64,000 nt of DNA. It comes from Escherichia coli. Its GTDB lineage: Bacteria; Pseudomonadota; Gammaproteobacteria; Enterobacterales; Enterobacteriaceae. The translations under genes and the position numbers were made by a program. The stretch's first letter is position 1. Each line of letters opens with the position of its first letter. Below, one piece after another: positions 55,238 through 61,649 of the stretch. Below the pieces are notes generated by a model that was given only the letters and a program-made list of their open reading frames with translations, made no database searches and was not told the DNA's origin. The stretch lies in assembly GCF_003790525.1 (NCBI RefSeq), contig NZ_CP033635.1. The stretch is one strand, 5' to 3'.

Positions 55238-56179
55238 ATGTTAGACAATGTTTTAAGAATTGCCACACGCCAAAGCCCACTTGCACTCTGGCAGGCACAC
55301 TATGTCAAAGACAAGTTGATGGCGAGCCATCCGGGCCTGGTCGTTGAACTGGTACCGATGGTGACGCGCGGCGATGTGATTCTTGATACGCCGCTGGCGA
55401 AAGTAGGCGGAAAAGGCTTATTTGTTAAAGAGCTGGAAGTCGCGCTCCTGGAGAATCGCGCCGATATCGCCGTACATTCAATGAAAGATGTGCCGGTTGA
55501 ATTCCCGCAAGGTCTGGGGCTGGTCACCATTTGCGAGCGTGAAGATCCTCGCGATGCCTTTGTGTCCAATAACTATGAAAGTCTGGATGCGTTACCGGCA
55601 GGCAGTATCGTCGGGACGTCCAGTTTACGTCGCCAGTGCCAACTGGCTGAACGCCGCCCGGATCTGATTATCCGCTCCCTGCGCGGCAACGTCGGCACTC
55701 GCCTGAGTAAACTGGATAACGGCGAATACGATGCCATCATTCTTGCCGTAGCCGGACTAAAACGTTTAGGTCTGGAGTCCCGCATTCGCGCCGCATTGCC
55801 ACCCGAGATTTCTCTTCCGGCGGTAGGACAAGGTGCGGTGGGTATTGAATGCCGCCTTGATGATTCTCGCACTCGCGAGCTGCTTGCCGCGCTGAATCAC
55901 CACGAAACTGCACTGCGCGTTACCGCAGAACGCGCCATGAATACCCGTCTCGAAGGCGGATGTCAGGTGCCAATTGGTAGCTACGCCGAGCTTATTGATG
56001 GCGAAATCTGGCTGCGTGCGCTGGTCGGCGCGCCGGACGGTTCGCAGATTATTCGCGGTGAACGCCGCGGTGCGCCGCAAGATGCCGAACAAATGGGGAT
56101 TTCGCTGGCAGAAGAGCTACTGAATAACGGCGCGCGCGAGATCCTCGCTGAAGTCTATAACGGAGACGCCCCGGCATGA
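55238..56179 (+). CDS. hemC: Porphobilinogen deaminase (hydroxymethylbilane synthase) HemC
   Basis: [27 protein letters not shown]...; start chosen at MLDNVL. Confidence 0.95.
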
Positions 56180-56916
56180 GTATCCTGGTCACCCGCCCGT
56201 CTCCCGCTGGAGAAGAGTTAGTGAGCCGTCTGCGCACACTGGGGCAGGTGGCCTGGCATTTTCCGCTGATTGAGTTTTCTCCGGGTCGACAATTACCGCA
56301 ACTTGCTGATCAACTGGCAGCGCTGGGGGAGAGCGATCTGTTGTTTGCCCTCTCGCAACACGCGGTTGCTTTTGCCCAATCACAGCTACATCAGCAAGAT
56401 CGTAAATGGCCCCGATTACCTGATTATTTCGCCATTGGACGCACCACCGCACTGGCATTACATACCGTAAGCGGACAGAAGATTCTCTACCCGCAGGATC
56501 GGGAAATCAGCGAAGTCTTGCTACAATTACCTGAATTACAAAATATTGCGGGCAAACGTGCGCTGATATTACGTGGCAATGGCGGTCGTGAGCTAATTGG
56601 GGATTCCCTGACGGCGCGCGGTGCTGAGGTCACTTTTTGTGAATGTTATCAACGATGCGCAATCCATTACGATGGTGCAGAAGAAGCGATGCGCTGGCAA
56701 TCCCGCGAGGTGACGACGGTCGTTGTTACCAGCGGTGAAATGTTGCAGCAACTCTGGTCGCTGATCCCACAATGGTATCGTGAGCACTGGTTACTACGCT
56801 GTCGACTATTGGTCGTCAGTGAGCGTTTGGCGAAACTCGCCCGGGAACTGGGCTGGCAAGACATTAAGGTCGCCGATAACGCTGACAACGATGCGCTTTT
56901 ACGGGCATTACAATAA
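56176..56916 (+). CDS. hemD: Uroporphyrinogen-III synthase HemD
   Basis: 246 aa; 4-bp overlap with hemC. Confidence 0.9.
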
Positions 56917-56937: not shown

Positions 56938-58131
56938 ATGACGGAACAAGAAAAAACCTCCGCCGTGGTTGAAGAGACCAGGGAGGCCGTGGACACCACG
57001 TCACAACCTGTCGCAACAGAAAAAAAGAGTAAGAACAATACCGCATTGATTCTCAGCGCGGTGGCTATCGCTATTGCTCTGGCGGCGGGCGTCGGTTTGT
57101 ATGGCTGGGGTAAACAACAGGCCGTCAATCAGACTGCCACCAGCGATGCCCTGGCTAACCAACTTACTGCACTGCAAAAAGCCCAGGAGAGCCAAAAAGC
57201 CGAGCTGGAAGGCATTATCAAGCAACAAGCTGTACAGCTTGAGCAGGCGAATCGTCAGCAAGAAACGCTGGCAAAACAGCTGGATGAAGTCCAACAAAAG
57301 GTCGCCACCATTTCCGGCAGCGATGCTAAAACCTGGCTGCTGGCTCAGGCTGATTTCCTGGTGAAACTCGCCGGACGGAAGCTGTGGAGCGATCAGGACG
57401 TCACGACCGCTGCAGCGTTGCTGAAAAGTGCAGACGCCAGCCTGGCGGATATGAATGACCCGAGTCTGATTACCGTTCGCCGGGCAATTACCGATGATAT
57501 CGCCAGCCTTTCTGCGGTATCGCAGGTGGATTATGACGGCATTATCCTTAAGCTTAATCAGCTTTCAAATCAGGTAGATAACCTGCGTCTTGCTGATAAT
57601 GATAGCGATGGTTCGCCGATGGATTCCGACGGTGAAGAGCTTTCCAGTTCCATCAGCGAATGGCGTATCAATCTGCAAAAAAGCTGGCAGAACTTTATGG
57701 ACAACTTCATTACGATTCGCCGTCGTGATGACACCGCCGTACCGCTGTTAGCGCCAAATCAGGATATCTATCTGCGCGAAAATATTCGCTCTCGCCTGCT
57801 GGTCGCAGCACAAGCTGTACCGCGTCACCAGGAAGAGACTTATCGCCAGGCGCTGGAGAACGTCTCCACCTGGGTACGTGCTTACTACGATACTGATGAT
57901 GCCACCACCAAAGCGTTCCTCGACGAGGTGGACCAGTTAAGCCAGCAAAATATCTCGATGGATCTTCCGGAAACCCTGCAAAGCCAGGCGATGCTGGAAA
58001 AATTGATGCAGACCCGCGTGCGTAACCTGCTGGCACAACCGGCAGCAGGGACAACGGAAGCTAAACCTGCACCTGCACCTGCACCTGCACCGCAAGCTGA
58101 TACTCCGGCAGCCGCGCCGCAAGGAGAATAA
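56938..58131 (+). CDS. hemX: HemX (putative uroporphyrinogen-III C-methyltransferase-like membrane protein)
   Basis: 397 aa, N-terminal TM, coiled-coil, C-terminal PAPAPAPAP repeat. Confidence 0.9.
58066..58092 (+). repeat. Tandem hexanucleotide repeat (CCTGCA)x4 plus one degenerate unit, encoding (Pro-Ala)n at the HemX C-terminus
   Basis: Counted directly in sequence. Confidence 0.85.
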
Positions 58132-58133
58132 CC

Positions 58134-59330
58134 ATGCTAAAAGTGTTATTGCTCTTTGTTTTGCTGATTGCGGGGATCGTGGTTGGCCCGATGATTGCCG
58201 GTCATCAGGGGTACGTATTGATTCAGACCGACAACTACAATATCGAAACCAGCGTCACTGGCCTCGCGATTATTTTGATTCTGGCGATGGTAGTGCTGTT
58301 TGCCATTGAGTGGCTACTGCGGCGGATCTTCCGCACAGGCGCGCACACCCGTGGGTGGTTTGTCGGACGTAAGCGTCGCCGTGCCCGTAAGCAGACCGAA
58401 CAGGCGCTGCTGAAACTAGCGGAAGGCGATTATCAGCAAGTTGAAAAGCTGATGGCGAAAAATGCCGATCACGCTGAACAACCGGTGGTGAACTATCTGC
58501 TGGCTGCCGAAGCCGCGCAACAACGCGGTGATGAAGCACGCGCCAACCAACATCTGGAACGCGCAGCGGAGCTGGCCGGCAACGACACAATTCCGGTAGA
58601 AATCACCCGTGTACGTCTGCAACTGGCCCGTAATGAAAACCATGCTGCACGCCACGGCGTGGATAAGCTGCTGGAAGTTACGCCACGCCATCCGGAAGTA
58701 TTACGTCTGGCGGAACAGGCGTATATCCGCACTGGTGCATGGAGTTCGCTGCTGGATATCATCCCATCAATGGCGAAAGCCCACGTTGGCGATGAAGAAC
58801 ATCGTGCAATGCTGGAACAACAGGCATGGATTGGCCTGATGGATCAGGCGCGTGCCGATAACGGTAGCGAAGGTTTGCGTAACTGGTGGAAAAACCAAAG
58901 CCGGAAAACGCGTCATCAGGTGGCGTTACAGGTGGCAATGGCGGAACACCTTATTGAGTGTGATGACCATGACACCGCCCAGCAAATTATCATCGACGGC
59001 CTGAAACGCCAGTATGACGATCGCCTGCTGCTGCCGATCCCGCGTCTGAAAACCAATAACCCGGAACAGCTGGAAAAAGTGCTGCGCCAACAGATCAAAA
59101 ACGTGGGCGATCGCCCGTTGTTGTGGAGCACACTGGGTCAGTCGCTGATGAAGCACGGCGAATGGCAGGAAGCATCGCTCGCCTTCCGCGCGGCGCTGAA
59201 ACAACGTCCGGACGCCTACGATTACGCATGGCTTGCCGACGCGCTGGACAGACTGCACAAACCGGAAGAAGCCGCAGCGATGCGTCGCGATGGCTTGATG
59301 CTGACCTTACAGAATAACCCGTCACAGTAG
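58134..59330 (+). CDS. hemY: HemY (TPR-containing inner-membrane protein of the hem operon)
   Basis: 398 aa, N-terminal TM helices, TPR-like repeats. Confidence 0.9.
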   Translation: MLKVLLLFVLLIAGIVVGPMIAGHQGYVLIQTDNYNIETSVTGLAIILILAMVVLFAIEWLLRRIFRTGAHTRGWFVGRKRRRARKQTEQALLKLAEGDYQQVEKLMAKNADHAEQPVVNYLLAAEAAQQRGDEARANQHLERAAELAGNDTIPVEITRVRLQLARNENHAARHGVDKLLEVTPRHPEVLRLAEQAYIRTGAWSSLLDIIPSMAKAHVGDEEHRAMLEQQAWIGLMDQARADNGSEGLRNWWKNQSRKTRHQVALQVAMAEHLIECDDHDTAQQIIIDGLKRQYDDRLLLPIPRLKTNNPEQLEKVLRQQIKNVGDRPLLWSTLGQSLMKHGEWQEASLAFRAALKQRPDAYDYAWLADALDRLHKPEEAAAMRRDGLMLTLQNNPSQ

Positions 59331-59377: not shown

Positions 59378-59584
59378 AAAAAAACGCCTGCTCTTATTAC
59401 GGAGCAGGCGTTAAAACAGGTCTGTATGACAACAAGTGGGTGCTTCACTCAACGTTGTGTCCATGGTGTCTGATGAGGCATAAGCGACATCTGTCAGTGG
59501 ACGATAAGCACCGTAAACGGCTCTGCGTCATTCCGGAGTTTATGAGGCACTAAGGCGAACATAAGAGATGGAATGAGCATCTAC
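59378..59584 (-). ncRNA. glmZ: Small regulatory RNA GlmZ (SraJ/RyiA), regulator of glmS
   Basis: Minus-strand sequence GUAGAUGCUCAUUCCAUCUCUUAUGUUCGCC...CGCCUGCUCCGUAAUAAGAGCAGGCG-U7 matches my memory of GlmZ, including the intrinsic terminator; lies in the expected hemY-aslA intergenic region. Confidence 0.8.
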
Positions 59585-59993: not shown

Positions 59994-61649
59994 ATGGAAT
60001 TTTCGTTTTCACCCAAACTTCTTGTTGTAGCTGTCGCCGCCGCTCTTCCACTCATGGCCAACGCAGCAGATACCCCGTCAACCGCCACCGCACGCAAAGG
60101 CTTTGCCGGATACGATCACCCAAACCAGTATCTGGTTAAACCGGCGACCACTATTGCCGACAACATGATGCCGGTGATGCAGCATCCTGCACAAGACAAA
60201 GAAACCCAGCAGAAGCTGGCAGAACTTGAGAAAAAAACCGGTAAGAAACCGAACGTGGTTGTTTTCTTGCTGGATGATGTGGGCTGGATGGATGTTGGCT
60301 TTAACGGCGGCGGCGTGGCGGTGGGTAACCCTACACCAGATATCGACGCCGTTGCCAGCCAGGGGCTGATTTTAACTTCGGCGTATTCTCAACCGAGTTC
60401 TTCCCCAACCCGCGCCACGATTCTTACCGGACAATACTCCATCCACCACGGCATTCTGATGCCGCCAATGTACGGGCAACCGGGCGGTCTGCAAGGGTTA
60501 ACCACTCTGCCGCAGTTGCTGCACGATCAGGGCTACGTCACTCAGGCCATCGGGAAATGGCATATGGGGGAAAACAAAGAGTCGCAGCCGCAGAACGTTG
60601 GCTTTGATGATTTCCGCGGCTTTAACTCGGTATCCGATATGTATACCGAATGGCGTGATGTTCACGTCAACCCGGAAGTCGCCCTGAGCCCGGATCGTTC
60701 TGAATACATCCAAAAACTGCCGTTCAGCAAAGATGACGTTCATGCCGTGCGCGGCGGTGAACAGGAAGCCATTGCCGACATTACGCCGAAATATATGGAA
60801 GACCTGGATCAACGCTGGATGGAATATGGCGTTAAGTTCCTCGACAAGATGGCGAAGAGCGATAAGCCTTTCTTCCTCTACTACTGCACTCGCGGCTGTC
60901 ACTTCGATAACTACCCAAATGCGAAATATGCGGGTAGCTCTCCGGCGCGCACCTCTTACGGCGACTGCATGGTGGAGATGAACGATATCTTCGCCAATCT
61001 GTATAAAGCACTGGAGAAAAACGGTCAGCTTGATAACACGCTGATTGTGTTCACCTCTGATAACGGTCCGGAAGCCGAAGTTCCGCCGCACGGTCGCACG
61101 CCGTTCCGCGGTGCGAAAGGTTCTACATGGGAAGGCGGCGTTCGTGTGCCAACCTTCGTTTACTGGAAAGGCATGATCCAACCGCGTAAATCTGACGGCA
61201 TTGTCGATCTGGCGGATCTCTTCCCTACGGCGCTGGATCTGGCGGGGCATCCTGGGGCGAAGGTAGCGAATTTAGTACCGAAAACCACCTTTATCGATGG
61301 TGTGGACCAGACATCTTTCTTCCTGGGAACAAATGGTCAGTCTAACCGTAAGGCCGAGCACTACTTCCTCAACGGTAAACTTTCTGCTGTGCGTATGGAT
61401 GAGTTCAAGTATCACGTCCTGATCCAGCAACCGTACGCGTATACCCAGAGCGGGTATCAGGGTGGATTCACCGGCACAGTAATGCAAACGGCGGGATCGT
61501 CGGTGTTTAACCTGTACACCGATCCGCAGGAAAGCGACTCCATCGGCGTGCGCCATATTCCGATGGGTGTACCGCTACAGACCGAAATGCACGCGTATAT
61601 GGAGATCCTGAAAAAATATCCACCACGCGCGCAGATTAAATCTGACTAA
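59994..61649 (+). CDS. aslA: Arylsulfatase-like protein AslA (Cys/Ser-type sulfatase family)
   Basis: 551 aa, signal peptide, sulfatase signature region ([13 protein letters not shown]). Confidence 0.9.

Follow-up and report, generated by a model that had tools for sequence, protein, structure and literature searches.

The in-frame CCTGCA repeat near the 3' end of Escherichia coli hemX is the MLVA locus CVN014, very probably a near-neutral tandem repeat driven by slippage

Introduction

What is the short, perfect tandem repeat that lies in frame near the 3' end of hemX in Escherichia coli, how far does its length vary from strain to strain, and does that length matter to the HemX protein or to the gene that follows? 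The question was raised by a stretch of 64,000 nucleotides from an E. coli genome (contig NZ_CP033635.1), hereafter called the window, in which a sequence-only reading had pointed to four CCTGCA units plus a degenerate one, had described them as prone to slippage and possibly different in number between strains, and had assigned them to a periplasmic linker. The present report deals successively with the tract and its host gene, with the typing marker to which the tract corresponds, with the alleles encountered in complete genomes, and with the readings that may account for their diversity.

The repeat tract and its host gene

The gene and the two parts of the repeat are located in the window as follows:

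56938-58131, + strand: hemX coding sequence, 397 amino acids, comprising an N-terminal region, a transmembrane helix, a long helix and the helical HemX domain (open reading frame, Pfam match and model)
58066-58089, + strand: perfect hexanucleotide (CCTGCA)x4 encoding (Pro-Ala)x4, the variable part of CVN014 (sequence reading, TRF and shuffles)
58090-58092, + strand: CCG (Pro), the closing half-unit, invariant across all of the alleles examined (allele comparison)

The 397-residue open reading frame is matched both by the Pfam family HemX PF04375 (361 bits against a cut-off of 25.9, E-value 3.8e-108, residues 130-363) and by NCBIfam PRK10920 (719 bits against a cut-off of 313), and it takes its place in the gene order hemC-hemD-hemX-hemY, flanked by hemD (56176-56916) and hemY (58134-59330). 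A single transmembrane helix occurs at about residues 34-57, with three Lys residues just before it and one after it. According to the positive-inside rule and to the distant homology with Mic60, it is plausible that the C-terminal bulk of HemX, including the tract, is periplasmic. HemX has been reported as a distant Mic60 homologue devoid of the mitofilin domain, its two-hybrid interaction with YhcB/ZapG has been reported as conserved, and a review presents the protein as poorly characterised, with a methylase role that is only "suggested".

All of the RefSeq loci that were fetched label hemX as "uroporphyrinogen-III C-methyltransferase". No methyltransferase domain was found in HemX by the Pfam scan, which gave the HemX family and a sub-threshold Tweety match only, and the product name looks like a legacy misannotation spread via NCBIfam PRK10920. 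A sequence search of the PDB for relatives of HemX returned none. Further downstream, the intergenic region between hemY and aslA contains the small RNA GlmZ/SraJ (59378-59584, minus strand), which is matched over its full length by Rfam RF00083 (218 bits, E-value 2.9e-57) and is a known gene at its expected position.

By direct reading, the four CCTGCA units are followed by the CCG half-unit and then by CAA, a codon for Gln. The program TRF delimits an array at 58065-58091, with a period of 6, 4.5 copies, 100% matches, 0 indels and a score of 54, which is the sole array with more than 2.5 copies in the window; 0 matches to (CCTGCA)x3, a string of 18 nt, are expected from 100 dinucleotide-preserving shuffles. 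The tract stands in codon phase 0 of hemX, each CCT-GCA unit encoding Pro-Ala, and is translated into PAPAPAPAP. Sequence, TRF and translation thus agree with the earlier description of an in-frame (CCTGCA)x4 with a degenerate unit at the end of hemX. The tract region of the window is 100% identical to that of E. coli SMS-3-5.

The tract overlaps neither a promoter-like or terminator-like site nor an Rfam family. An open reading frame of 61 amino acids that spans it on the minus strand (57937-58122, with the translation "RCRCRCRC") was discarded as a mechanical by-product of the repeat. The next-best tandem array nearby is located in the interior of aslA (60269-60300, + strand), where a 15-bp unit, GCTGGATGGATGTGG, occurs in 2.2 copies with 88% matches; these copies are too few to expect instability.

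Identity with the typing marker CVN014

CVN014 is a 6-bp VNTR of generic E. coli MLVA (Lindstedt et al. 2007) and belongs to the GECM-7 and GECM-10 schemes. Its primers and the gene that harbors one of them are located in the window as follows:

58042-58061, + strand: exact site of the CVN014 "R" primer, GCAGCRGGGACAACGGAAGC (primer match)
58153-58176, - strand: exact site of the CVN014 "F" primer, TCCCCGCAATCAGCAAMACAAAGA, within the 5' end of hemY (primer match)
58134-59330, + strand: hemY coding sequence, downstream of hemX, containing one CVN014 primer site (open reading frame, Pfam and primer match)

Both primer sequences, taken from PMC8143711 and PMC8261245, give exact, unique and convergent matches around the tract, whereas 0 are expected by chance. 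The resulting amplicon (58042-58176) is 135 bp long and the published allele formula, (product size - 111)/6, yields (135-111)/6 = allele 4, which is the number of CCTGCA units. Through this matching of primer sequences, and with convergent primers, a 6-bp unit, the 111-bp offset, a near-universal occurrence and a high polymorphism all found at the same place, the hemX tract is the MLVA locus CVN014, already known and in routine use.

In the typing literature, CVN014 is called the most variable or polymorphic locus of generic E. coli MLVA. In Swedish ESBL isolates no other locus varied as much as CVN014, one study recorded 9 alleles in the range 4-15 with a Nei value of 0.83 and no null alleles, and alleles 2-11 have been reported within ST131 alone. 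In some MLVA papers the allele numbers are arbitrary and do not correspond to true unit counts. The allele figures obtained in silico, as presented below, agree with this literature. Literature searches by gene name yielded no paper tying hemX to a VNTR, the only hit in full text for hemX together with MLVA or VNTR being an unrelated Salmonella paper, and the host gene of CVN014 is unnamed in the open-access MLVA papers that were searched. An anonymous and widely used marker is now tied to a specific gene and to a specific protein feature, the C-terminal tail of HemX, and its allele is readable in silico as the count of CCTGCA between GGAAGCTAAA and CCGCAAG. The value of the finding is mainly practical.

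Copy-number alleles across E. coli

Of 5,426 complete E. coli genomes searched with a 451-bp query extending across the tract, 5,425 contain the region, in matched spans that step by exactly 6 bp. Two independent systematic samples, consisting of rows taken at even steps down the ranking of these 5,425 genomes, gave near-identical allele distributions. Once pooled (N=118; the samples are systematic and not random, and clinical lineages are over-represented in the genome collection), they comprise 15 alleles ranging over n=2-17 perfect units; the Simpson D is 0.894, and the distribution peaks at n=5-6 and again at n=2. The n=2 allele accounts for about 16% of the sampled genomes, all of them K-12-like by score. 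No allele below n=2 was present among the 118 sampled genomes, upon which this minimum is solely based, and such a lower limit could correspond either to a mutational floor or to selection.

The longest alleles were reached by means of a synthetic n=40 probe and consist of n=25 (strain SD134209), followed by 23, 22, 21 and 20; sequence checks confirmed n=25 and n=23 as perfect tracts. Samples and long-allele probe taken together, the tracts of complete E. coli genomes contain n=2-25 perfect units, always in frame. When one example was fetched per length class, namely n=2 (the K-12 type), 3-14 and 17, all of the length difference was found to sit inside the perfect CCTGCA tract, with invariant junctions, GGAAGCTAAA on one side and CCGCAAG on the other. 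The 16 sequenced alleles (n=2-14, 17, 23 and 25) show whole-unit differences only, in phase 0 and with a constant flank length, and the span differences are multiples of 6 in 163 tallied genome rows. The suggestion that strains may differ in the number of Pro-Ala repeats is therefore borne out by alleles whose length differences all fall within the tract; invariance across diverse strains, the outcome that had been named as refuting it, is contradicted by the 15 alleles of the pooled samples.

The same data bear on the idea of a phase-variable on/off contingency locus and on that of length differences created by assembly, two readings that deserve practically no credence. Phase variation classically acts on perfect short repeats located within coding sequence, but a unit of two codons, spans in multiples of 6 and sequenced alleles that are all in frame speak against it, and on/off switching is excluded because the 6-bp unit keeps every allele in frame. 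The phase-variable locus was rejected on these grounds and for lack of a promoter-like site nearby. As for assembly artefacts, repeats are indeed error-prone in sequencing, but PCR fragment sizing sees the polymorphism independently in many MLVA studies, and the polymorphism is consistent over thousands of complete genomes produced by many laboratories, which excludes an artefact.

A few genomes depart from the common arrangement. The only sampled span off by a non-multiple of 6 occurs in E. coli P276M (NZ_CP044293.1, about 2365075-2365690), in which the tract itself is unchanged and hemY bears the annotation of a truncated "HemY N-terminal domain-containing protein", pointing to a disruption located directly downstream of hemX. 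In addition, the hemX-hemY junction went unmatched in one of the 5,426 genomes and was matched twice in another, and one of the matched places is plasmid-borne.

Pace and pattern of change

The pace of change can be appreciated within a single clone. Genomes of O157:H7 with n=6, 8 and 17 show 0 differences in 4,427 flanking bp, so that change in the tract far outpaces point mutation. Two further O157-type genomes, with n=4 and n=5, display 1-3 base differences in their flanks, and 25 genomes of the O157 lineage with essentially identical 400-bp flanks extend over n=6-12; this lineage sample was obtained with an n=0 synthetic probe, for which two-piece alignments scored highest, with no ranking by allele size. 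The alleles n=4, 5, 6 and 8 are found in the O157 flank group as well as on unrelated flank backgrounds and, since the same sizes occur on unrelated flank haplotypes, allele size is homoplasious. Compared with its conserved flanks, the tract thus changes faster, as is required of a slippage-type VNTR. Both the whole-unit alleles and the variation within a clone uphold the earlier view of a slippage-prone repeat, the mechanism itself being inferred from the pattern.

With regard to the DNA itself, every CCTGCA unit contains the palindrome TGCA, and imperfect hairpins predicted in the tract with DNA parameters amount to -20 to -25 kcal/mol at n=17 and to about -3 to -4 kcal/mol at n=4. Long tracts capable of forming hairpins are compatible with a length-dependent instability, though they are not required for it, and the abundance of n=2 fits a short tract nearly immune to slippage.

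Taken as a whole, the locus is very probably a near-neutral, slippage-driven VNTR, CVN014, situated in the C-terminal tail of HemX, itself probably disordered. Slippage during replication of the perfect (CCTGCA)n tract would gain or lose whole 6-bp units and, the unit consisting of two codons, each allele would stay in frame and alter nothing but the (Pro-Ala)n length of the tail. Such unit changes would be frequent, recurrent in unrelated lineages and close to neutral; short tracts, such as n=2 of the K-12 type, would be nearly frozen and longer ones unstable. The pattern of alleles suggests the slippage mechanism, the relaxed constraint and the dispensability among orthologues described in the next section point to near-neutrality, and the tail is presumed to be disordered and periplasmic. 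In biological terms, this would represent an ordinary slippage expansion in a dispensable, disordered tail. For typing purposes, the strong homoplasy of CVN014 and its variation within clones restrict its value to the outbreak scale.

The C-terminal tail of HemX

The tract belongs to the last segment of the protein:

58033-58128, + strand: coding region of the tail, residues 366-397, low-complexity, predicted coil, weakly constrained and containing the repeat (alignments and model)

The Pfam domain extends to residue 363 and the last predicted helix to residue 365, and only 12 residues are left after the tract. In the AlphaFold2 model, residues 366-397 form a coil with pLDDT values of 27-37; this model, built from an 11-sequence alignment and with a mean pLDDT of 44 and a pTM of 0.31, was used for secondary-structure boundaries only, and, being poor overall, it supports a disordered tail only weakly. 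Among the polymorphic codons of 14 E. coli alleles, those of the domain comprise 21 synonymous and 1 non-synonymous, whereas those of the tail flanks comprise 1 and 3 respectively, and judging from these codons the constraint is clearly relaxed in the tail. The word "linker" in the sequence-only reading does not hold, given that no folded domain comes after the tract, that only its 12 residues do, and that the tail measures 0-118 amino acids across the family. An interdomain proline-rich linker was rejected for the lack of a folded or functional domain on the C-terminal side.

In close genera, the tail keeps its two extremities, RVRNLLAQP... and ...PAAAPQGE, but not its middle, the terminal ...PAAAPQGE being conserved in Escherichia, Citrobacter and Salmonella. 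The PA repeat is absent from Salmonella HemX in the ortholog comparison, and the Citrobacter species possess P/A runs that differ from those of E. coli. Over a wider range, 92 diverse HemX representatives, taken from clusters at 50% identity, have 0-118 amino acids of tail past the last domain helix, with a median of 11. These tails are hydrophilic and of low complexity, many of them have 5 amino acids or fewer, only 6 are Pro/Ala-rich among the 58 with 10 amino acids or more, and no motif is shared among the 92 representatives. On this comparison, the whole tail is dispensable across the HemX family.

These comparisons also serve to weigh the possibility that (Pro-Ala)n acts as a length-tunable rigid spacer, which would keep the conserved ...PAAAPQGE tethered at a defined spacing from the HemX domain, allowing it for instance to contact a partner in the periplasm or the outer membrane, and whose length would be under selection as in other proline-rich envelope spacers. 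The preservation of the terminal 8-9 residues in three genera is in its favor, together with the absence of any n<2 allele in the 118 sampled genomes, the top rank of hemX among positively selected E. coli genes in one paper, and the distant Mic60 homology and YhcB/ZapG partnership that make envelope-spanning contacts conceivable. Nevertheless, we hold this spacer to be improbable. A 12-fold range (n=2-25) among E. coli strains and a 4-fold one (n=4-17) inside a single clone are hard to square with a tuned length, the 92 representatives offer neither a common motif nor a stable tail, Salmonella does without the PA repeat and most orthologues lack the tract, the alignments of the selection paper were not codon-aware, and the ...GE and ...EG endings are in keeping with codons that contain the GGAG ribosome-binding site of hemY. 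The near-neutral VNTR is accordingly the reading we retain for the tail.

Other length variants of HemX were encountered in the course of these comparisons. Two sequences of Citrobacter sedlakii, P0009 (397 amino acids) and P0024 (400 amino acids), differ by an in-frame tail variant, (AAP)2 versus (AAP)3, from which it follows that repeat-length variation in the HemX tail arose independently in another genus. An E. coli-type HemX of 485 amino acids from an ENA metagenome contig (P0001) shows an 88-residue internal tandem duplication, HQEETYRQ...TTEAKPA, with an interrupted tract, PAPAPAPTPAPAPAP; the duplication could be real or could be a mis-assembly seeded by the repeat. Small indels mediated by repeats also occur elsewhere in hemX: an E. 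coli HemX of 387 amino acids (P0003) has a 6-residue deletion, QKAQES, at a near-repeat of the coiled-coil region, and the HemX of Salmonella Berta (P0063, 413 amino acids) contains a 24-residue tandem duplication that begins inside the transmembrane helix. In two metagenome-derived sequences, P0112 (435 amino acids) and P0127 (230 amino acids), frameshifted tails run into the hemY region (...AAAPAGRAPPPLPLKHRRQ...), probably because the GC-rich stretch coding for P/A was missequenced or misassembled.

The hemX-hemY junction

The end of hemX carries a signal for the next gene:

58121-58126, + strand: AAGGAG, the Shine-Dalgarno sequence of hemY, inside the last hemX codons (Gln-Gly-Glu), 7 nt before the ATG at 58134 (sequence reading)

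The Gln-Gly-Glu codons, CAAGGAGAA, contain the AAGGAG motif, the hemX stop codon occupies 58129-58131 and the hemY ATG comes 2 nt further on; hemY is probably translationally coupled to hemX. The HemX tails of many enterobacteria finish in ...GE or ...EG and, with the Shine-Dalgarno sequence lodged in the Gln-Gly-Glu codons, a constraint that hemY translation exerts at the nucleotide level would account for at least the last codons of hemX. The ribosome-binding site covers only the last 2-3 codons of the conserved ...PAAAPQGE, however, which makes a short tethered C-terminal motif possible.

The proximity of the two genes raises the idea that the length of the tract modulates the expression of hemY, through mRNA structure or ribosome traffic. 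The ribosome-binding site of hemY is located 32-37 nt past the tract and within hemX, the gap between both genes is limited to 2 nt, and long tracts self-pair through their TGCA palindromes when folded with DNA parameters. The predicted pairing nevertheless remains confined to the tract, leaving the ribosome-binding site uninvolved, ribosomes translating hemX would open it, and an enormous variation in length is tolerated within a clone; an effect on hemY is thus extremely improbable.

The published selection signal on hemX

In Table S1 of PMC9110714 (Sci Rep 2022), a scan of 92 E. coli from wastewater, hemX ranks by far first among the positively selected genes (omega=21.9, p=7.3e-128), from alignments that were not codon-aware. 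In a clean alignment, the C-terminal 219 residues of HemX contain 4 amino-acid-variable columns, 3 of which are in the tail. A misalignment of the VNTR creating false substitutions was not seen, MAFFT having aligned the 14 alleles cleanly at both the DNA and the protein level. The published signal may be an artefact of the CVN014 indels combined with a relaxed tail, an hypothesis tied to the alignment procedure of that particular paper. More generally, indel-rich VNTRs are a pitfall that can distort gene-length annotation, clustering at 90% identity and dN/dS scans.

It is very improbable, in our opinion, that the length of the tract is non-neutral in one way or another, by tuning either HemX, for example by setting how far a tethered peptide can extend in an envelope protein akin to Mic60, or the translation of HemY. 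If it were so, the VNTR would represent a fast-evolving "tuning knob" for envelope or heme physiology, and the "positive selection" signal on hemX would be partly real.

Comparison with known systems

The alternation of X-Pro in the HemX tract, expected to be extended and unstructured, is shared with the Ala-Pro hinge of OmpA and with the Glu-Pro/Lys-Pro region of TonB, and a bulk that is probably periplasmic is a further point in common. These two regions join two functional domains and have an essentially fixed length in each species. The HemX tract is unlike these spacers in that it is followed by 12 residues only, varies 12-fold in E. coli and is missing from most orthologues. With contingency loci, it has in common a perfect short repeat in a coding region and a high slippage rate, but its unit is a multiple of three, no frameshift occurs and all of the alleles encode a full-length HemX. 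The tract also resembles other in-frame hexanucleotide VNTRs employed to type enterobacteria, such as the Vhec/TR/O157-n loci and STTR5/STTR6 of Salmonella, which likewise consist of 6-bp units gained and lost by slippage, with a high homoplasy and a use at the outbreak scale. These are different loci from the hemX tract, though for the O157 set, considered by locus names and allele ranges, this is only presumed. With CVN014, finally, the hemX tract shows no difference at the DNA level.
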